Below, one piece after another: positions 4,492-49,969 of a DNA stretch of 64,000 nucleotides; position 1 is the first letter of the stretch, and each line of letters opens with the position of its first letter. Where the stretch lies: the IMG/VR virus record IMGVR_UViG_3300018080_000111; one strand, 5' to 3'. The position numbers and the translations under genes are program-made. Source of the DNA: a virus (taxonomy: Duplodnaviria > Heunggongvirae > Uroviricota > Caudoviricetes). The notes below the pieces were generated by a model. The model did not search any database, was not told where the DNA came from, and was given only the letters and a program-made list of their open reading frames with translations.

Positions 4492-4817
4492 TTACGTTTC
4501 CTCTAAAACAGGTGAAGCAAAGGGGTTCGTCCTCATACCAGACAGTTTTTCCTGGCTCTAATTCCGTTTGACAGTTGGAACAATTCTCTCCCATAGAATG
4601 TAGTTTCTTTTCAACTTCTTCCAAGGTGGAGCACTTAAACCCCACTAAATTTTTGGAAGATAGATTGGAAAGTAAGAATCCCTCTTCTTGGATTTCAAGA
4701 ACTACAAGTCCTTTTTCACTTGCTCTTTTTCTCAGATTGAATAGTTTCGTAATCTCCCTTTCGCATTAAACCCTATATTTAAAATATAGCCCACTTTTCC
4801 GGGAAGGCCAAATAAAA

Positions 4818-4891
4818 TCTCCCAGGTCAGATTTGAATTGACAACTTCTCGGCCCCAAACCGAGCACTCTGCCAAGTTAAGCTACTGGGAG
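4818..4891 (-). tRNA. tRNA-Pro(UGG)-like
   Basis: Reverse strand reads CTCCCAG-TA-GCTT-AACTTGGCA-GAGT-G-CTCGG-TTTGGGG-CCGAG-AAGTT-GTCAA-TTCAAAT-CTGAC-CTGGGAG-A. The 7-bp acceptor and 5-bp anticodon stems are perfect, the loop is UU-UGG-GG, and the D-loop has A14/G18G19/A21. The T-stem has one A53/C61 mismatch. No encoded CCA. Confidence 0.6.
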
Positions 4892-5118
4892 AAAGAAGAG
4901 AAAAGCATTGAACTCCTAAAATCCAATAGGATCAAATCTCCTTCAGCATTTTCTCTTTTGCTCATATTTCCAATATTTCCCTAATTTTCTTCCATTTCTC
5001 TCCCATTTGTGATATCCGAAGACAGCCTATTAAATCTGTTATCTGGTTTTGTCCTAACATTCCAGGGTCCGACCCATGATACACTTGGCGATGGATAAAT
5101 TGACCATTTTTTCATCTC

Positions 5119-40666: not shown

Positions 40667-42304
40667 ATGTCAATTTACATGTCTCCGGGTGTGTACAGTC
40701 AGGAACTTGATCTTAGTGATATCGTCCCCCGGGTAGCAACAGCCCCTGCGGCAATAGTGGGATATTCGGTAAAGGGGGATGTAAATAATATTCGGTTGAT
40801 AACTAGCGATCAACAGTTTATTGAACAATACGGAGAACCAGATCCATCATCTGGACATTTCTTCCATTATTCGGCCTTAGCATACTTGAAGAAAGGGAAT
40901 GCCCTTTATTGTCTTCGGGTGCATAATGGAGCGCTTTGGGGTGGTGTCAATATTATGAAGAGCACATCTTCGTATAGCAATGCTGCTCTAAGTGCCGGAC
41001 AGGCCACGGACTCCTTTACAGCGGCTTCCGGGTATCTTAATGATACCTTGTTCCAGATTCTGGGTGCAGATCCTGGAGCTTGGGACAACCGGATAGGTAT
41101 TAAGATTCAGAATGTTAAGGATGGATCAGAAACGGTTGCTACCGATCAGTATACTTTTGAAATTGTTGTATACTGGCAAGATGATGATGGAAATTGGTCT
41201 CAAGTTGAGCTCTGGAAGGTATCTAGAAAAACGAAAGTCGATGGGTATGGAAAGCAGCTCAATCTTGAGGATAAGATCAACGGCTACAGCAACTATATTA
41301 TCGTTAAGGACAATACCGCTCTTGCTGATACTGTCGTTCCTAAGGCACAAGCTACCCGGTTAGATCTAGAAGGTGGAGATGACGGTAGTGATATTTCTGC
41401 TTCGGATTTGGTTACGGGTTGGGGTGAGTTTGAAAATCCAGATGATATAGATGTCCGCATCCTTATTAATGGAGGAGAGACCAGCGTCACGGTACAGACG
41501 GAGATAAGGGACGTTGCGGAAGCGAGGGCGGACTGTATTGCCGTTCTGGATATGCCCTACGCCAGCACGAATTCCTCAACTAGTATGCTGACTTTCCGGA
41601 ACACAACCCAGAACTTCAATACAAGCTATGCGGCCTTGTATACTATCTGGCCGCGGATTCATGATGAGTTTAATGATCTTTTGATCCGAGTTCCCCCGTC
41701 CGGATATGTTGCAGCCCAGTATGCCTACAATGATTATGTCCAGAATGTCTGGTTTGCTCCGGCTGGATTCAATCGAGGGGTTCTGGATGGTGTTCTTGAA
41801 TGTACGAAAACGGATGGAAAGCCTCTGTCTCAGGGGGATCGGGATGTCCTTTACCCGGCTCAGATAAATCCTTTGCAGACGTTTAGGGGAGAGGGCCATG
41901 TAATTTGGGGCCAGAAAACTCTACAGAAGAAAACTTCTGCTTTAAGTTCTGTTAATGTCCGAAGGCTCTTAATTGTTATTGAAAAATCGATGGCCATATC
42001 TTTACGGTCCTTTGTGATGGAACCCAACAACGATTTAACCCGGTTTAGAGTAGAAGCCTTGCTGAATGGATATTTAAGCGGATTATCTGCTCAAGGGGCT
42101 TTTCAGACCGAAGCTGGAGATCAAGGATTTCATGTGGTATGTGATACTACGAATAATACTTCAGAAGTTATTGATTCAGGGGAGCTTCGGGTGGATGTAT
42201 TTGTGAAGCCGTCCAGAGCTGCGGAGTATATCCGGCTCAGGACAATAATTACCACCAGTGGCGCAAGTTTTGAAGAACTTTCATCTAAAGGATTGCTTCT
42301 ATAA
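40667..42304 (+). CDS. tail sheath protein
   Basis: N-terminal MSIYMSPGVYSQELDLS, the SPGVY...E.D.S signature of contractile-tail sheath proteins. 545 aa. Confidence 0.8.
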   Translation: MSIYMSPGVYSQELDLSDIVPRVATAPAAIVGYSVKGDVNNIRLITSDQQFIEQYGEPDPSSGHFFHYSALAYLKKGNALYCLRVHNGALWGGVNIMKSTSSYSNAALSAGQATDSFTAASGYLNDTLFQILGADPGAWDNRIGIKIQNVKDGSETVATDQYTFEIVVYWQDDDGNWSQVELWKVSRKTKVDGYGKQLNLEDKINGYSNYIIVKDNTALADTVVPKAQATRLDLEGGDDGSDISASDLVTGWGEFENPDDIDVRILINGGETSVTVQTEIRDVAEARADCIAVLDMPYASTNSSTSMLTFRNTTQNFNTSYAALYTIWPRIHDEFNDLLIRVPPSGYVAAQYAYNDYVQNVWFAPAGFNRGVLDGVLECTKTDGKPLSQGDRDVLYPAQINPLQTFRGEGHVIWGQKTLQKKTSALSSVNVRRLLIVIEKSMAISLRSFVMEPNNDLTRFRVEALLNGYLSGLSAQGAFQTEAGDQGFHVVCDTTNNTSEVIDSGELRVDVFVKPSRAAEYIRLRTIITTSGASFEELSSKGLLL

Positions 42305-42350: not shown

Positions 42351-43661
42351 ATGTTTGGATATTTATTTGAAAAATTATTCTGTTTGTTGGAATCTCCAGT
42401 AGAATCTCCTACGGAGACGCCAAAGAAGCTTCCGACGGAGGAACCCGGGAGGACGGTTCCTGTACCAAGAAGAAAGCGAAAGCATCCATTGGAGCCAGAG
42501 CCAGGAATTTCTCCTGAACCTAAGGGAATTTCTGCGGAGATAAATAAGTTTCTACAGTCCAGAAATCTTGGAATTGAGGAAGCTTTTGATCCTGGAAAAT
42601 ATCCTTCTTTTGTTCATCCGGATAAAGAGAACTGGATTTCTAGTGGGGATGATCAATTGAAGGAAATTCTTCCTAACCTTTCGGATTCAGAGCAGTCGTA
42701 CCTTGAGATGATAGCGAGTAATTCGTATCAGGAGATGTTGGGTAGATTAGAGAAATATACTTCGGTTCAAATTACCCAGGAATCTCTTCCAGGATTAGTT
42801 GGTTTGCTTCAAAGCACCCTGAGGAAGGTATTAGGTATAGAAGCTGACCGAAAGGACTACCTAGAACAATTGGCTCTATCTTCTGTTTTGGATTTACCGG
42901 AATTTGAGATGGTAAAGGACGCCTATGAAAATGGCCTTGTTGATTTTGATGTAAAATTAGATCAACCTGAGCTTAATTGGGATGTGGATATTGAGAAGGA
43001 AGAGGACCTTTCGGGAGAAGAAACTTTAAATTTGGAATTAGCAAAAGAGTTTGAGGAGGTTAGAACAGAAGAGGAACTTCGAAGAAGAATGGCAAATCTT
43101 CTAATTCAGGGATCAAGTGTTCTTAAATTGTATCTTTTTAATCTGGTTAATCCAGAATTGAAAGAAATTGATTCGAATCTTCCTAATATGTATGGAATAC
43201 TTGGAGCTCTTGCTCAATTGGGTTACTGGATAACCCCTGATGGGATAGAACAATCAGCTCGAGGAGAGGGTGAGGCAGGATCTGCCCAGGTAGTTCCCCA
43301 AGGGGACACTTACACTATAAAAGTTAGAGCAATCACTTTTCCATATCTAGTTCATGAATTAACAAAGGGAATATATGAATGGGTTTCTTTGGATCCAGAA
43401 CTTCGTAGAGTGATGAAGAAGGAGACTCCTGAAAGTGAAACAAAGGATATAATGATCGGATCAGAATTATTTAAGATCATTTCGTCCTATTTGGGGAAGG
43501 GAAAAGAATCTCTTCTACCCTTGGTTCATAAGAAGTTCCTGGGATTAAATAAAATGGAAAAGAGAGATATTTTATCTAAGAACTCTTCTGGGAAGGATAT
43601 AATGGATGATTTAATAGGAGAAGCTGAGGAGGAGTGGAAAGAGTATTTTAGGAACGAATAA
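42351..43661 (+). CDS. hypothetical protein (436 aa)
   Basis: ORF. Confidence 0.45.
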   Translation: MFGYLFEKLFCLLESPVESPTETPKKLPTEEPGRTVPVPRRKRKHPLEPEPGISPEPKGISAEINKFLQSRNLGIEEAFDPGKYPSFVHPDKENWISSGDDQLKEILPNLSDSEQSYLEMIASNSYQEMLGRLEKYTSVQITQESLPGLVGLLQSTLRKVLGIEADRKDYLEQLALSSVLDLPEFEMVKDAYENGLVDFDVKLDQPELNWDVDIEKEEDLSGEETLNLELAKEFEEVRTEEELRRRMANLLIQGSSVLKLYLFNLVNPELKEIDSNLPNMYGILGALAQLGYWITPDGIEQSARGEGEAGSAQVVPQGDTYTIKVRAITFPYLVHELTKGIYEWVSLDPELRRVMKKETPESETKDIMIGSELFKIISSYLGKGKESLLPLVHKKFLGLNKMEKRDILSKNSSGKDIMDDLIGEAEEEWKEYFRNE

Positions 43662-44164
43662 TGTTCAACGAACTATACGAAAACATTCTTACTGAGATCA
43701 GTAAATCTGAATTTGAGGACCTATTCCAGCCTATCTCTCAGGAGGAACTGGAATCCAGACTAATGGACTACATCAAGTCCGTCTGTACTGAAAATCCAGA
43801 TGGCACTTGGAGTGCCAGTGGAGATGTAGATGTAGATCTATATGGTAGAGGCCTAACTAAGTTACCCATCAAATTCAAGGAAGTAGGCGGACACTTTGAT
43901 TGTTCCAACAACTCTCTAACTTCTCTAGAAGGAGCACCTCAGAAAGTAGGTGGTTTCTTTATTTGTTCCCACAACTCCCTAACTTCTCTAGAAGGAGCCC
44001 CTCAGACAGTGGGTGGATCCTTTTATTGTTCCAACAACTCTCTAACTTCTCTAGAAGGAGCCCCTCAGACAGTAGGTGGTTTCTTTATTTGTTCCCGGAA
44101 CAAACTTTCAGTTGAAGAGCTAAAGAAAACAATTGATAGACCTTATTTGGATAGAATAGGATAG
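43661..44164 (+). CDS. leucine-rich-repeat protein, paralog 2
   Basis: Same N-terminal domain and 20-aa repeats as 29101. Confidence 0.6.
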   Translation: MFNELYENILTEISKSEFEDLFQPISQEELESRLMDYIKSVCTENPDGTWSASGDVDVDLYGRGLTKLPIKFKEVGGHFDCSNNSLTSLEGAPQKVGGFFICSHNSLTSLEGAPQTVGGSFYCSNNSLTSLEGAPQTVGGFFICSRNKLSVEELKKTIDRPYLDRIG

Positions 44165-44248: not shown

Positions 44249-44761
44249 ATGTCAATGAGTGCAGATAATTTAAAACAAGATCTCAGCAATGCCGCACGGT
44301 TATATCTGTGGGATATTGTCCTTTCTAGTTTGCCAGGTGGGGGGGATCGAGATCATCTGGAAGTACGTGCACAAAGCGCGGCGATTCCGGGAAGAAGTTT
44401 TGGCGAGATCCTGGTTCCCTTTAAGGGAACCCCTGGAATAAAACTACCAGGGAAACTTACCATGACACATACCTGGCCGGCAGTTTTTATCGAAGGAACC
44501 GATCAGGCGGTATTCGATGCGATTTACGGATGGAAGCAGCTTATCCAGGATGCCCAAAGTGGTATAGGGTCTCTGGACTTGGACATAAAGACTGATATAT
44601 ACCTGCGTCTTTTGAATCCTATGGATACTGTGGTCAAAAAATTCAAGTTGGTGGGTTGTTACCCCCAGGCGATGGATGATACTCCCGTAGCATATGACGA
44701 TGAAGGAGTTATCATGTATGCTGTCACATTTTCATATGATTATTGGACCGCGGAGGATTAA
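44249..44761 (+). CDS. tail tube protein
   Basis: 170 aa, immediately after the sheath cluster. Similar to the downstream paralog (C-terminal D[DE]GV[LI]M.A.[IV]T[LF]S.D). Confidence 0.65.
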   Translation: MSMSADNLKQDLSNAARLYLWDIVLSSLPGGGDRDHLEVRAQSAAIPGRSFGEILVPFKGTPGIKLPGKLTMTHTWPAVFIEGTDQAVFDAIYGWKQLIQDAQSGIGSLDLDIKTDIYLRLLNPMDTVVKKFKLVGCYPQAMDDTPVAYDDEGVIMYAVTFSYDYWTAED

Positions 44762-45291
44762 TGCCTTTTGGGTTGGATATATCTGGTTTAGGTTTCTTTC
44801 TATCTTCGAAGACTTGGAACCTACAGAGGGCCTACAATTGGTCTCTAATGATGCCCAGTGATTTTTCTGGGGTCTTGGGATATTTGGTCTCTCAATATTG
44901 TCAGGACGTAACCTTTGGAGACTATAGTATTTCCGAGTTGTCCGTGATGAAGTCTGGAGCCTTCCAAAAGTTCTATGCTGGATTACAGACGATAGATACT
45001 GTCACCTTACTCTTTTTGGTCCCTTCCGATAACTCCTTGCGGGAATACTTCTACGGATGGTATGAGAGGATGATCGATAAGGAGGGCTACTACTACCCCA
45101 AATTGAATTATAAGAGGGATGTATATTTGATGTTTTACGATCAAAGTGGCCTTGAAAATGTTCGGTTTTTAATGAAGGGATGTTTTCCGAAGACCCACCT
45201 TGTCGAGCATCCCTCATATACTGATGACGGAGTTCTAATGGCTCAAATTACTTTGAGTATTGATAAAATTGAACCTACTGGGGGGCTTTAA
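44743..45291 (+). CDS. tail tube protein paralog
   Basis: Shares the C-terminal pattern with 44249. Confidence 0.55.
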   Translation: MDRGGLMPFGLDISGLGFFLSSKTWNLQRAYNWSLMMPSDFSGVLGYLVSQYCQDVTFGDYSISELSVMKSGAFQKFYAGLQTIDTVTLLFLVPSDNSLREYFYGWYERMIDKEGYYYPKLNYKRDVYLMFYDQSGLENVRFLMKGCFPKTHLVEHPSYTDDGVLMAQITLSIDKIEPTGGL

Positions 45292-45333: not shown

Positions 45334-46578
45334 ATGTTCAACGAACTATACGAAAACATTCTTACTGAAATCAGTAAATCTGAATTTGAAGACCTTTTCC
45401 AACCCGCTTCAGAGGAGGAACTGGAATCCAGATTAATGGACTACATCAAGTCCGTCTGTACTGAAAATCCAGATGGCACTTGGAGTGCCAGTGGAGATGT
45501 AGATCTATTTGAAAGAGGTCTAACTAAGTTACCCGTTCAGTTTAAGGAAGTAGGTGGTTTCTTTGAGTGTTCCTTCAACTCTCTAACTTCTCTAGAAGGA
45601 GCGCCCCAGGAAGTAGGTGGATCCTTTTATTGTTCCAACAACTTACTAACTTCTCTAGAAGGAGCACCCCAGAAAGTAGGTGGAACCTTTGATTGTTCCT
45701 TCAATTCTCTAACTTCTCTAGAAGGAGCCCCTCAGACAGTAGGTAGAAACTTCGATTGTTCCCACAACTCTCTAACTTCTCTAGAAGGAGCCCCTCAGAC
45801 AGTAGGTGGTTTCTTTATTTGTTCCCACAACTCCCTAACTTCTCTAGAAGGAGCCCCTCAGACAGTAGGTGGAACCTTTTGGTGTTCTGACAACAAAAAA
45901 CTTTCAGTTGAAGAGCTAAAGAAAACAATTGATAGACCTTATTTGGATAGAATAAAAGAATCCACCCTAAAAGAAGGAAAGAAGGAGGATCTCCATAAGC
46001 AATTTGTGGAAACAAATAAAGTTCCAGAAAAGGTATTTCACGATTTAGTTAAGTCTGATCGAACCGGAAAACAGAAGTATCTTTCTTGGATGTTGAAACA
46101 GTATGTTCTTAATCCAAGAAGACATACTCATATAAAAGACGTGGTCGAGTTATTTCATAAATTGGTCTCTAAAGGAAAAATCAGAGGATCTGATTCAGAT
46201 ATCTTTCTGTATGATTTAGAATCTTTAGATCAAAAGATTTCTGAAATTCCGGAAGAGAAAAGTAAAAGTGAAATCAAAAGAGAAAAAAAATCTGAATCGG
46301 AAAAAATTAAAGAAACAGATAGATACTTAATTGTTGTTCCCAAAAACCATGAAGCTTCCTGCTTCTACGGGTCAAATACTAAATGGTGTATCTCATCAAG
46401 AACCTCAGAGTATTGGGATAGGTATTGGAATATGGGATCCATTATCTACATCGTCATAGATAAGAAGGAAAACAAGAAGTATGCTGTGGCGACCTATCCG
46501 GATGGAACAAGGGAGGTTTATAATGAGAAGGACGAAACAATTCCCTTTAGTTCTTTGGTTAAAAAATTAGGAATGTAG
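45334..46578 (+). CDS. leucine-rich-repeat protein, paralog 3, fused to a C-terminal 200-aa domain
   Basis: Same N-terminus and repeats, with a C-terminal extension (..CFYGSNTKWCISSRTSEYWDRYWNMG..). Confidence 0.6.
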   Translation: MFNELYENILTEISKSEFEDLFQPASEEELESRLMDYIKSVCTENPDGTWSASGDVDLFERGLTKLPVQFKEVGGFFECSFNSLTSLEGAPQEVGGSFYCSNNLLTSLEGAPQKVGGTFDCSFNSLTSLEGAPQTVGRNFDCSHNSLTSLEGAPQTVGGFFICSHNSLTSLEGAPQTVGGTFWCSDNKKLSVEELKKTIDRPYLDRIKESTLKEGKKEDLHKQFVETNKVPEKVFHDLVKSDRTGKQKYLSWMLKQYVLNPRRHTHIKDVVELFHKLVSKGKIRGSDSDIFLYDLESLDQKISEIPEEKSKSEIKREKKSESEKIKETDRYLIVVPKNHEASCFYGSNTKWCISSRTSEYWDRYWNMGSIIYIVIDKKENKKYAVATYPDGTREVYNEKDETIPFSSLVKKLGM

Positions 46579-46602: not shown

Positions 46603-47352
46603 ATGGATGATTTTGTACCCATCAATTTACCATCGAAGTGTCTGACTTATTCTAATCAGGATGGTTCAAAAGTAGATCCTGGTTCAGTTTTAGCCAGATC
46701 ATATCAAGGTAGAGATGAACTCTATCTTTCTCAAATCAATCCAATAAACTTAGAGAGAAACTATCTCGAGGTTCTAAAATCCGTCCTACAAGGAGTAGAT
46801 CCTCTTCAATTAACTTTGGGGGATCGTCTGTATTTAATCCTATGGGAATACGTGAACTCCTATGATTGTATGATGACGGTCAAATCTGTCTGTTCTCATT
46901 GCCTTTCAGATATCGAAGTTCAGGTTGATTTGAGAAATCTGGAGACGGTGGATCTTCCGGATAACTATAAACAACCTTATGAGGTTCCTCTTCCGGTTTC
47001 TGGGGAGAAGATACAATTGAGGCTGCTTACTGTTGGAGATGAGGTAGAGGTTGAGCGATACGCAAAAAAGAATAAGAATGATGTGGACCTATACCGCTAT
47101 GCCCGAACGATAGTTGATTCTTCCTTGGATGTGGTCGCTCGGATGAAAAAATTAGCTTCTATGAAAGCCAAGGATTATCTGACAGTAGTTTCTTTTCAGG
47201 ATAGGTTTTTCCACGGTCCAGAAATGAAGACGAAGTTTAAATGTACAGATGATGCTTGTGGGGAGGAGGATATTTTGGATATTCCCTTTCGATCTAGTTT
47301 CTTTGTACCGGAGATCTCCCAGTTTTCGAACTTTGATGGAGAGGGAGTTTAA
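46603..47352 (+). CDS. tail assembly chaperone candidate (gpG/E-like position)
   Basis: Located between tube and tape measure. Overlapped at its 3' end by a +1-frame ORF that ends exactly at the tape-measure start. Confidence 0.45.
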   Translation: MDDFVPINLPSKCLTYSNQDGSKVDPGSVLARSYQGRDELYLSQINPINLERNYLEVLKSVLQGVDPLQLTLGDRLYLILWEYVNSYDCMMTVKSVCSHCLSDIEVQVDLRNLETVDLPDNYKQPYEVPLPVSGEKIQLRLLTVGDEVEVERYAKKNKNDVDLYRYARTIVDSSLDVVARMKKLASMKAKDYLTVVSFQDRFFHGPEMKTKFKCTDDACGEEDILDIPFRSSFFVPEISQFSNFDGEGV

Positions 47353-47479
47353 CTTATTGTATTACCTGCATTTAAGTGTTTCGGATCAAAGAAAAATGGA
47401 TGTTCGGATGCTGGAATGTCATTACAATAGAATATACGAGCAAAAGAAATCCGAGAAGGAAAATAAGGAAAGAAGTTAA
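47249..47479 (+). CDS. +1-frame overlapping ORF (possible GT/E'-like extension, or a small independent gene from ATG 47336)
   Basis: Overlaps 46603..47352 by 104 nt in the +1 frame. SD-like GGAGAGGGAG immediately precedes the UUU-UAA stop context. Confidence 0.35.
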   Translation: MMLVGRRIFWIFPFDLVSLYRRSPSFRTLMEREFNLLYYLHLSVSDQRKMDVRMLECHYNRIYEQKKSEKENKERS

Positions 47480-49053
47480 TGTATCAAAAGCGTAAGTATA
47501 GATATGAAAAAGATGCTTTTGGCAAGAAACACCGAAAGTATTTTTTGGAGAATATCTTTGGGGTAGATGTCTTTGATATGAAGACCTTCCGGGCCTTAAA
47601 GTTGAAACTCTCTCGCGATTATGTGACGTTCTTTCGTTCTTTAGGGGATCTATATAAAAGGGGGGAGTTTAAAAGGATTACTAATGAATCGGTTTTATTG
47701 GCTCTAGAGACAATAAATCTTCTAGAAAATCTGATAGAATCTGGGACTTTTAATAAGAATGATGTAAACCTTTTGGTAGAGAATGTAGATAAGTTGAATT
47801 CCAGAAGAGATATTTTGTTGGAGAAGTCCAACCAGGTTCAAGCTTTGAAAGATCGGATGAATAGGGTTAGAAATGAAACCGGGATCGATCCAAAGAATTT
47901 AAATATTACCCGGGAGATTATCCGAAAAGGAGCCCGAGGAGAGATGAAGAAAAAGAAGGAGGGGGTTTTCCCATTTTTGAAACGAACAGCTCCTCGGACA
48001 GTAGAGACGATTCGGGATGTTTTTGGTGGTGTAGCAACTGGACTTCTTGGTCCTCTTACCCCCTTTGCTGAGATGGGAAAGGATATCTTTGGAGTTGGAA
48101 AAGGTATTTTTCAGAAGTTGGGAGAAAGAAAAGAGGAAAGACTGGGCAGACTCTTGTCACCATTATCCCCTCAGGGATCGGTAGGTGGTGCTTTTGGTGG
48201 GTCTCCTGGGATAATGGCCGGGGGGGCCACATCTTCCGCAAGTAGAAGAGCCGGATCAAATGTTCTTTTAGATTTCTTCAACAGAGGGGCATATAAAGCA
48301 AAGTGGACTAAAGAACTCCTTAAAAGAATGAAGGGTTTTGGGACGGCCAAATCCGGATTTTCATTCGGGGGAATTCTTAGTGGGGTAGTTGAAAAATTTA
48401 AAGATCTTTCTTTATCTTTAGTCCCCTTAATTGGTCCAGCAGGAAAACTTATGCTACTTGCCGGGGCAATTGCTTTCGCCTCGGATAGAATTTATACCCT
48501 TATGGGGAAATTTGAAGAGTGGAGAAAAACTAAAGAGGATGTTGAAAAAGAAATAGAGAAATACAAAAAAATTCAGAAAGAACAAGAAGGAAGACTTCAA
48601 TCAGCCTTGGGGAAGAAATTACAAAAGGGAGCTAAGGGGGATGAGTCTAGTAGGGTAGATGCACTAAAAATGATCCATTCCGTTGAGATGGAAAGGGCAA
48701 AGAAAGTTGAGGAAGAGTCTTTAACGTGGGGGGAAAGATTAGTATCCCCCCTCACCAAACCATTCTATAAAGAACCAAGGAAAACGTTTTGGCCGCAGGC
48801 AGAGGAAAAGAGCCGGGTTTTTCCATCTGTTCCTGAATTTTTCCAGAGGCAGGGAAAGGGAAAACAAGAAATTGAACAAGAACTTTTACGGGCCATAAAA
48901 AAATTAGATGAGACTGCTCTTGGTCTGCATAAGGGGGTCGACAGAATGAATAGGAAACAACAAATGGGAGAACCGGGATTAGGGAATCCGTATGACTCTA
49001 GTGATCCGTGGGTTAATGCTTTGGCTTCATCTGAATTGGAATTAGAGGACTAA
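47479..49053 (+). CDS. tape measure protein candidate
   Basis: 524 aa, in the tape-measure slot of the tail module. Gly-rich hydrophobic core (GGILSGVV..GPAGKLMLLAGAIAFA) and coiled-coil-like charged regions. Confidence 0.55.
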   Translation: MYQKRKYRYEKDAFGKKHRKYFLENIFGVDVFDMKTFRALKLKLSRDYVTFFRSLGDLYKRGEFKRITNESVLLALETINLLENLIESGTFNKNDVNLLVENVDKLNSRRDILLEKSNQVQALKDRMNRVRNETGIDPKNLNITREIIRKGARGEMKKKKEGVFPFLKRTAPRTVETIRDVFGGVATGLLGPLTPFAEMGKDIFGVGKGIFQKLGERKEERLGRLLSPLSPQGSVGGAFGGSPGIMAGGATSSASRRAGSNVLLDFFNRGAYKAKWTKELLKRMKGFGTAKSGFSFGGILSGVVEKFKDLSLSLVPLIGPAGKLMLLAGAIAFASDRIYTLMGKFEEWRKTKEDVEKEIEKYKKIQKEQEGRLQSALGKKLQKGAKGDESSRVDALKMIHSVEMERAKKVEEESLTWGERLVSPLTKPFYKEPRKTFWPQAEEKSRVFPSVPEFFQRQGKGKQEIEQELLRAIKKLDETALGLHKGVDRMNRKQQMGEPGLGNPYDSSDPWVNALASSELELED

Positions 49054-49057
49054 TAAA

Positions 49058-49969
49058 GTGGCAGATAATTTTGTTCCTAGAAATACTGAAAAAAATCCGA
49101 AATGGTACTCAACCAGACTTTCTAATGAGGAAAGGAAAAAGAAACGCCTTCTTCATCGAACTCATAGGTTGTCCTCCGGATTCACCGAATACGGGTATGT
49201 GGTTTCTGATGGGGATAGGGTTCCTCCTGAATATCTTATACGAATAACAAGCTATCGGAACAATTGTACCGTGATCTCACCATTCCAGGAGGATGGAATT
49301 TCCATGACGGTAGAATCTCAATGGGAACCGATTCTACCAACTTCCATTTTGAGAAGAGCTAATATTTTTGTTCAGGCCACAACCCAAAGGTCCGCAATAA
49401 CCAGCTCTACTACCAGGAGGTTGTGGTCGGGAACCACTCCTATGGGTATCTCAATAAAAATGAAATTTGAGGCGGTTAATGATCCATTTGTTGAAGTTGT
49501 TGAACCCTGCAGACTTCTTCAGTTAATGGCTCTTCCATCTAATCCATCTGGAAAAAGTGGTCCGGATGTATCTGGGATTGCTGAAGCTGTTGGAGAACTC
49601 CGTTTCGGGGATGCATATAGTATGACTAAGGAGGCAATTACAAATCTACCCATGTTGCAACCACCAGGACCGTCCCCATTTACCTGGGATAGCCTTTTAT
49701 CGGGGCAAGTCAATTATCCGGATAGAACCAGATCGGATATAGATAATGCTAGAAAAGGTGGAGATTTTATCATCTTGGAGTTAGGAACCTTCTTGACTTT
49801 CTGGAATGTGATTGTCCGGGAAGATCTGGTTAACTTCAAGACAAAATTTGGTCCGGATGGTTTGCCCATTTCGGCCGAAGCAGAAATTCGTTTTGAAACC
49901 TATGAGATGCCGACGAAGGAAAGTTTGGATCATTCCTATACTCAGATAGAAACACCTTCAGGAGGGTAA
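49058..49969 (+). CDS. tail protein (P2 gpU-like or DNA-circularisation-like position)
   Basis: Position after the tape measure, 303 aa. Confidence 0.4.
   Translation: MADNFVPRNTEKNPKWYSTRLSNEERKKKRLLHRTHRLSSGFTEYGYVVSDGDRVPPEYLIRITSYRNNCTVISPFQEDGISMTVESQWEPILPTSILRRANIFVQATTQRSAITSSTTRRLWSGTTPMGISIKMKFEAVNDPFVEVVEPCRLLQLMALPSNPSGKSGPDVSGIAEAVGELRFGDAYSMTKEAITNLPMLQPPGPSPFTWDSLLSGQVNYPDRTRSDIDNARKGGDFIILELGTFLTFWNVIVREDLVNFKTKFGPDGLPISAEAEIRFETYEMPTKESLDHSYTQIETPSGG

Follow-up and report, generated by a model that had tools for sequence, protein, structure and literature searches.

An overlapping gene pair between tail tube and putative tape measure genes

The stretch of DNA analyzed here is a 64,000-nucleotide (nt) segment of a virus of the class Caudoviricetes (IMG/VR record IMGVR_UViG_3300018080_000111), referred to below as the window. 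It represents a structural module of a large myophage, in which two overlapping open reading frames (ORFs), ORF1 and ORF2, lie between the tail tube genes and a putative tape measure gene. An earlier note on this DNA, made from the sequence alone, had assigned the pair to the slot of the tail assembly chaperones, and the gene annotations on either side agree with this placement. The locus contains the following elements:

46603..47352, + strand: ORF1, the 0-frame product of 249 amino acids (aa), with the stop codon TAA at 47350-47352
47228..47479, + strand: ORF2, the +1 frame, open from 47228, with the first ATG at 47249 and the stop codon TAA at 47477-47479
47260..47270, + strand: Shine-Dalgarno-like (SD-like) string GGGGAGGAGGA, 14-24 nt upstream of the heptamer CCCTTTC
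47284..47292, + strand: proposed +1 shift site CCC_UUU_CGA, corresponding to ORF1 codons P228-F229-R230
47290..47352, + strand: dual-coding overlap, in which the C-terminal end of the 0-frame protein (RSSFFVPEISQFSNFDGEGV) and the start of the +1 extension are encoded together
47291..47479, + strand: +1-frame extension of 62 codons, DLVSLYRRSPSFRTLMEREFNLLYYLHLSVSDQRKMDVRMLECHYNRIYEQKKSEKENKERS, with the stop codon TAA at 47477-47479

Both ORFs and their coordinates were verified as the earlier note had given them, and the second ORF is indeed offset by +1 from the first, in place of the canonical -1. It also ends where the note had it end, at the start of the next gene: the ORF2 stop codon and the ATG at 47479 share the sequence TAATG (47477-47481). 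Joining ORF1 residues 1-229 to the 62-codon extension yields a predicted trans-frame protein of 291 aa.

A scan of viral contigs revealed 75 related loci with 26-65% protein identity, and the 60 distinct sequences among them are used for the site counts given below. All of the related loci with complete 3' ends (73/73) have a +1 frame that is free of stops over at least the last 19 codons of ORF1 and over 21-60 codons more after its end. Such consistent openness indicates that the overlap is more than a product of chance. The -1 frame is short and unconserved, and meets a stop within 5-7 codons both before and after the end of ORF1.

An invariant heptamer marks the beginning of dual coding

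The heptamer CCCTTTC (47284-47290), read as CCC_UUU_C in frame 0, is identical in 60/60 distinct sequences, with an entropy of 0 at all seven positions in the 57 sequences scored. The codon directly before the heptamer varies freely among the relatives; the codon that follows CCC_UUU is CGN in 52/57 (CGA 49, CGC 3), the remainder being CAA, CAC and CUC. CCC is the rarest Pro codon in the homologous genes (9%), and among the 46 long plus-strand ORFs of the window CCC_TTT_C is found in frame only at this position. An equally invariant control motif in the protein, TLGD, utilizes all synonymous codons.

Codon usage changes its character at the same place. The normalised synonymous-codon entropy is 0.85 upstream of P228 (83 conserved-residue columns) and 0.25 from P228 on (10 columns; Mann-Whitney p = 3e-7), where the codons TTT (57/57), CGA (49/52), CTT (46/49), TTT (47/47) and GGA (51/51) appear frozen. 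The peak of variability moves from the third positions of frame 0 before the heptamer to the third positions of the +1 frame after it. Pro-Phe is encoded in both frames at P228-F229 because the underlying DNA is CCCTTTC. The 0-frame residue P236 is invariant yet uses three synonymous codons, and the overlapping +1 residue varies. This pattern shows both frames to be under protein-level selection in the overlap; the 20 codons after the heptamer are thus truly dual-coding, with both products of importance. The ORF1 stop lies 18-25 codons past the heptamer among relatives, a displacement of up to 7 codons.

The predicted junction in the window reads ...DILDIPF/DLVSLYRR... (the slash marks the change of frame), with GAU (47291-47293) as the next codon after the slip. 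The corresponding predicted junction peptide is CTDDACGEEDILDIPFDLVSLYR, as opposed to CTDDACGEEDILDIPFR in frame 0. One relative (locus L067, 1795-1911) keeps CCC_TTT_CGA in front of a +1 ORF of 39 codons that has lost the conserved C-terminal half; the copy may be decaying, or the loss may stem from a sequencing error.

The +1 frame encodes a conserved peptide

Wherever the 3' end of a related locus is complete, a homologous peptide is found in the +1 frame, 60-75 residues long and with the consensus PFDLxSFFRMxxPLxxLLEREFxLCYxxxGFxxxDxRxxDxRxLDWxYxRLxKQ. The peptide begins at P228-F229, is conserved from the heptamer to its stop in 58 distinct relatives, and usually terminates where the following gene starts or directly beside it. 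Exchanges of Arg codons between AGG and CGT preserve the +1 residue while altering or terminating frame 0.

ORF2 is sparsely represented among predicted proteins. A profile of ORF2 recovers 8 clusters from 5.8 billion proteins, against 74 for the query containing ORF1, and its matches among 1.84 billion representatives are restricted to proteins of 36-95 aa. Gene callers rarely call ORF2, and the starts that they choose fall at six different places. The protein search returns 74 homologues, all of 222-259 aa, none of which is extended; the matches to the fused query are limited to homologues of 235-255 aa that cover 85% of it.

ORF1 is related to T4 gp26 and P1 PmgB

ORF1 matches the Pfam family PF12322 (T4_baseplate, gp26) at residues 47-234 with 29.3 bits, above the gathering cutoff of 24.5 bits, and the same family is carried by 74/74 of its protein homologues. 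Its PHROG matches comprise 'baseplate hub' and 'PmgB-like' families, with E = 1.9e-8 for phrog_1854 (P1 PmgB). Alignment of the ORF1 profile to P1 PmgB with hhalign gives a probability of 93.3% and E = 2.7e-7 over 207 columns. The only Pfam match of ORF1 is T4_baseplate, and no match to a chaperone family was found. A Cys4 motif (C97, C100, C214 and C219) is invariant in an alignment of 18 sequences. The AlphaFold model of ORF1, built from 75 sequences, has a predicted local distance difference test score (pLDDT) of 93 up to approximately residue 230 and decays afterwards, which in the model places the end of the folded domain at the shift site. The best PDB matches of the model are tail assembly chaperones, HK97 2ob9 and YqbN 3klu. 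We regard ORF1 as a putative tail assembly chaperone of a large myophage, belonging to the T4 gp26 / P1 PmgB family. A tblastn search with ORF1 finds 8 distant phage records only, and the scan of a genome collection yields two contigs only, both from metagenome-assembled genomes.

Candidate stimulators

The motif GGAGG is present at -30..-7 in 51/60 loci, compared to 8/1523 control windows, and is located 15-20 nt upstream of the heptamer. At this SD-like element GAG makes up 74% of Glu codons, compared to 43% elsewhere. The string GGGGAGGAGGA also consists of codons for a conserved C-G-E-E-D peptide, and its spacing from the shift site is preserved in neither the Bacillus nor the P1 clade. 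It is possible that GGGGAGGAGGA acts as a stimulator, a pause site or an occasional internal ribosome-binding site, or that it merely reflects Gly-Glu-Glu codons. The window also encodes tRNA-Pro(UGG) and tRNA-Gln(UUG) on the minus strand (4817-4892 and 1565-1636, respectively); an influence of the phage tRNA-Pro(UGG) on slippage at the rare CCC of CCC_UUU_C is pure speculation.

Routes into the +1 frame

The comparative data make it quite likely that a +1 shift at CCC_UUU_CGA would produce a second, longer form of the chaperone. Several observations weigh against this reading. The support for the shift is wholly comparative, and proof of frameshifting at UUU_CGN is limited to eukaryotic systems. 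No natural in-frame fusion of ORF1 and ORF2 is found among 1.84 billion representative proteins, and a structure model from a mixed alignment is confident for the N-terminal domain and of low confidence for the extension. RNAalifold predicts no pairs of a conserved RNA structure from -30 to +100 of the site. Among Arg codons, CGA has a share of 14% in the window and of 16% in the homologues, so that it is not rare in these genes; in general, CGA is a codon decoded slowly through I:A wobble. The strong enrichment of GGAGG and the GAG bias of its Glu codons are also to be counted here, as is the presence in about 26/60 loci of an ATG or TTG located 2-5 codons before the Pro-Phe (PF) pair, at an ideal spacing from the SD-like element.

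The last two observations, together with the lack of a fused homologue, would fit ORF2 being a separate small gene, started inside the end of ORF1 without any fusion being made. Such a start might lie just upstream of PF, with GGAGGAGGA (47260-47270) as its ribosome-binding site, or at the ATG 47336 or the TTG 47357 of the window, the latter 10 nt past the string GGAGAGGGAG. The combination of GGAGG with a well-spaced ATG or TTG implies that internal initiation could contribute in some lineages. As an explanation of the gene pair it is nevertheless unlikely. There is no ATG, GTG or TTG at or before PF in 24/60 loci, about half of the loci have a +1-frame stop just ahead of PF, at a distance of 1-3 codons, and in the window no canonical start is within reach of the upstream SD. 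An ATG two codons ahead of PF, where present, arises merely from the 0-frame Asp-Val codons (GAT GTN), and the middle base of the would-be start (position -4) has the highest entropy of the region, 1.98, which argues against any selection for ATG. The ATGs at 47249 and 47252 upstream and at 47336 downstream have no SD in the window. The earlier note had set an independent start at ATG 47336 against a fusion, and this start is disfavoured further by its codon, which is TTG, TTA, ATG or another in relatives, and by the +1 peptide, which is conserved for 17 codons upstream of it. Internal initiation also leaves the invariance of the rare CCC and of TTT unaccounted for, as well as the Pro-Phe in both frames at one spot, and the SD-like string is distant or absent in the Bacillus and P1 clades.

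The earlier note itself had favoured a site at the ORF1 stop, resembling that of prfB: the SD-like GGAGAGGGAG (47338-47347), followed by GTT TAA in frame 0 and TTT AAC in the +1 frame, would make the ribosome shift from GUU to UUU before UAA and give the junction peptide ...NFDGEGFNLLYY. The string does stand directly before GUU_UAA_C, and many relatives likewise end in ...GGAGAGGGAATT TAA. It is not, however, a conserved nucleotide element, but a set of codons for the conserved +1 peptide (L/M)-E-R-E-F, for which relatives use GGAGCGTGAGTTC or GGAAAGAGAATTC, among others; the variation is synonymous in the +1 frame (Arg AGG/CGT/CGG/AGA, Glu GAA/GAG). A prfB-type site requires a stop in a fixed position, whereas the ORF1 stop varies in its distance from the heptamer and in many relatives falls inside or before the LEREF codons (e.g. 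GGA GCG TGA, which is GAG CGT GAG in the +1 frame). Conservation among relatives, which the note had proposed as a check, therefore holds for the overlap and fails for a shifty site at the stop. In prfB the SD ends 3 nt upstream of the shift codon, whereas GGAGAGGGAG overlaps the last sense codon, the one in the P site; codon-anticodon rules, moreover, do not allow tRNA-Val to re-pair from GUU to UUU. We consider a shift of this type highly improbable. The start of dual coding 20 codons upstream, the moving stop and the varying SD-like string point instead to the junction DILDIPF/DLVSLYRR, which replaces the ...DGEG/FNLLYY of the note. A -2 ribosomal shift at CCC_UUU would lead to the same frame as a +1 shift, and RNA polymerase slippage at the C3T3 run is another conceivable route, the site of Bacillus phage SP-15 (see below) containing a run of T6. 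Yet a -2 shift on CCC_UUU permits no re-pairing, runs of 3 nt are far short of the known lengths for transcriptional slippage (longer runs are described in PMC5009743), and the feature common to all clades is an in-frame UUU_C rather than a homopolymer. Either of these events is barely credible as the source of the +1 product.

Proposed mechanism

With the +1 shift at CCC_UUU_CGA as the preferred reading, the most likely products of the ORF pair are a short protein and a longer one extended by the frameshift, similarly to G and GT of phage lambda. Most ribosomes would stay in frame 0 and produce the 249-aa protein, while a fraction would slip one base forward at 47284-47292. In this event tRNA-Phe would occupy UUU in the P site with CGA waiting in the A site, and would re-pair on UUC, its GAA anticodon exchanging a G:U wobble on UUU for a G:C pair on UUC. 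The tRNA-Pro before it could also re-pair from CCC to CCU, which would explain the invariance of CCC. After the slip, translation would proceed with GAU through 62 codons of the +1 frame to the stop overlapping the putative tape measure start. The two products would share residues 1-229, the long form reaching 291 aa.

The shared N-terminal domain would coat the tape measure protein, and the +1 extension would enable the long form to bind a second partner, probably the tube protein; the efficiency of the slip would set the ratio of short to long form. We infer the occurrence and the efficiency of the shift as well as the roles of both forms, the roles by analogy with lambda G/GT (PMC5009743).

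Related sites in cultured phages and P1

The ORF2 profile detects +1 ORFs after a gp26-like gene in four cultured phages (HSE3, GXN1, SP-15 and Slickus01). In the independent clades listed below, an in-frame UUU_C is accompanied by a conserved +1 ORF that runs to the tape measure gene:

Bacillus phage HSE3: UUC_UUU_CGU
Streptococcus phage GXN1: UUC_UUU_CGU
Bacillus phage SP-15: UUU_UUU_CAC
Alishewanella phage Slickus01: CCC_UUU_CAA
P1: CCC_UUU_CGG
D6: CCC_UUU_CUC
JK004: CAG_UUU_CGG
Xenorhabdus plasmid: CCA_UUU_CGG
Vibrio plasmid: CCC_UUU_CGG

The pmgB gene of P1 contains an in-frame GTG_CCC_TTT_CGG around position 44596 of NC_005856, on the minus strand (locus L083, 19423-19597). From there the +1 frame, which carries no annotation, is open for another 55 codons and closes 11 nt short of sit. 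The trans-frame protein so predicted would have 316 aa and the junction ...LWVPF/GLPISFHR..., with LWVPFGLPISFHR as the predicted junction peptide and LWVPFR as its frame-0 counterpart. Within the P1 clade, conservation of the +1 peptide (GW..NL.LYG.QP) extends to members with as little as 33% PmgB identity; the peptide is too diverged to match the ORF2 profile of the window. A pmgB frameshift is neither annotated in the P1 record nor mentioned in PMC9024508, according to which PmgB is essential for tail formation, is absent from virions and has been proposed as a tape measure chaperone because of its gene position.

T4 gene 26 was rejected as a frameshift precedent, having neither CCCTTT nor a +1 extension. 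Downstream of it lies gene 25 instead of gene 29, which encodes the tape measure. The gene (locus L076, 7803-8429, minus strand) gives two products, gp26 and 26' (95 aa, from an internal in-frame start), and thereby two related proteins by a route other than the proposed frameshift.

A wider proposal is more tentative, and our confidence in it stops a little short of even. Under this proposal, gp26/PmgB would be the chaperone of a very large group of myophages, from uncultured giants to P1, in all of which the ribosome would slip by +1 on an in-frame UUU_C(GN) to make the long form; UUU_CGN, the motif of influenza PA-X, would act as a frameshift signal for the ribosomes of bacteria, archaea and eukaryotes; an essential trans-frame protein of 316 aa would have gone unrecognised in P1 pmgB; T4 gp26 would be a homologue that lost the frameshift; and the phage tRNA-Pro(UGG) might tune slippage on CCC.

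The frameshift of tail chaperone genes is among the most conserved recoding events and is taught as a -1 shift, and T4-like tails have long been quoted as the exception lacking G/GT. The present locus would add a family of contractile-tail phages that reaches the G/GT end by a +1 slip, at a site as sharp as the -1 heptamer and with the core proven for influenza PA-X. If this is true, thousands of phage genomes are misannotated, with a 'baseplate hub' gene and an orphan or missing small ORF, and frameshift predictors would gain a concrete +1 motif. P1, for which pmgB is an established requirement in making tails, would allow the mechanism to be tested in E. coli, and T4 gp26 would acquire a hypothesis for its function, as a tape measure chaperone. 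In the literature we found no report of a frameshift in the pmgB/gp26 family or of UUU_CGN in bacterial phages, an earlier mention in Xu et al. 2004 being possible. A +1 shift in the chaperone slot has already been proposed for haloarchaeal myoviruses; the case of the gp26/PmgB family is apparently unreported.

The surrounding tail module

The module includes portal, protease and gp6-like wedge genes, and the DNA of the window displays no similarity to known phages. The tail genes around the ORF pair are as follows:

40667..42304, + strand: tail sheath (PF04984, PF17482; phrog_23, E = 4e-87)
44249..44761, + strand: tail tube, gp19-type (phrog_45, E = 2e-27)
44743..45291: second gp19-like tube paralogue, 182 aa, TTG start (phrog_45, E = 7e-10)
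47479..49053, + strand: downstream gene of 524 aa, Gly-rich/coiled, putative tape measure (by position and composition)
49058-49969: PmgG/gp48-like gene, next after the 524-aa gene

The order of sheath, tube, ORF pair and tape measure described in the earlier note is present, with a second tube paralogue and two leucine-rich-repeat (LRR) genes as additional members and with a tape measure gene that is recognized by position and composition only. The 524-aa gene has no match in Pfam, PHROG or NCBIfam and no phage match in tblastn, and its product is accordingly termed a putative tape measure protein. The positional counterpart of the gene in P1 is sit, and that in Bacillus phage HSE3 has a tape measure annotation; SP-15 has an identical order, but its downstream gene is annotated only as a putative tail protein. 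After the PmgG/gp48-like gene follow a LysM/gp53-like gene and then a spike-like gene.

The second tube paralogue overlaps the end of the first tube gene by 19 nt. The two LRR paralogues are inserted in the tail module, one between sheath and tube (43661-44164, 167 aa) and the other between tube and ORF1 (45334-46578, 414 aa). Their 188-nt 5' ends are 90% identical, and a repeat of 63 nt (21 aa) is present in 3 copies in the shorter gene and 5 copies in the longer one, whose protein has an additional C-terminal domain. Between the sheath gene and the first LRR gene lies an ORF of 436 aa (42351-43661) with a Pro/Glu-rich N-terminus and no Pfam or PHROG match.

Comparison with known systems

The arrangement resembles that of lambda G/GT and P2 E/E+E', where the tube and tape measure genes likewise enclose two overlapping ORFs, the second of them with no reliable start, and the two forms share the N-terminal domain (Xu, Hendrix and Duda 2004, as summarised in PMC5009743). 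It differs from both in the shift, which here would be +1 on UUU_C(GN) and not -1 on X_XXY_YYZ, and in ORF1, which is approximately twice as long, has a Cys4 motif and includes a dual-coding overlap of 20 codons. Among proteins of the same family, P1 PmgB is a homologue of ORF1 encoded directly upstream of the tape measure gene sit. T4 gp26 shares the Pfam family and the Cys4 pattern (CTC and CPEC in T4), and is considered to assist assembly and not to be a component with a known place in the virion (PMC9024508).

Shifts by +1 are documented in the Listeria phages PSA, A118 and A500, at CCC_UGA or CCC_UCC (PMC5009743). These also involve structural genes of low-GC phage genomes and the rare Pro codon CCC, but they affect major capsid and tail shaft genes, add decoration domains, rely on a stop codon or pseudoknot as stimulator, and have no UUU_C. 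Closer in gene position are the haloarchaeal myoviruses HF1 and HSTV-2, which have two coding sequences between tube and tape measure that need a +1 shift (PMC7230728; PMC5009743). For the chaperone pair of the HF1 group this shift was proposed at a conserved TTT-CGC (PMC7230728), and we verified the HF1 site as AAG_TTT_CGC. Unlike in the window, the HF1 site is located two codons before the stop, leaves almost no dual-coding stretch and belongs to a virus of an archaeal host. The first HF1 coding sequence (156 aa) was rejected as a homologue of ORF1 (hhalign probability 0.5%). HF1 also carries a tRNA-Pro(TGG) (locus L086, 42858-42928).

The core of the site is also known from eukaryotic viruses. 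A +1 frameshift at UCC_UUU_CGU is experimentally proven for influenza A PA-X (PMC3498833), and UUU_CGN has been proposed as the +1 motif of amalgaviruses (PMC5052127). The window shares with them an in-frame UUU followed by CGN, a P-site tRNA-Phe that would move from UUU to UUC, frozen synonymous sites and no obvious RNA structure. The viral examples utilize eukaryotic ribosomes and a rare CGN, whereas the window belongs to a phage of a bacterial host and its CGA is not rare among the Arg codons. Unlike PA-X and the amalgaviruses, the site described here is preceded by an invariant CCC that is itself able to re-pair, and has an SD-like element upstream.

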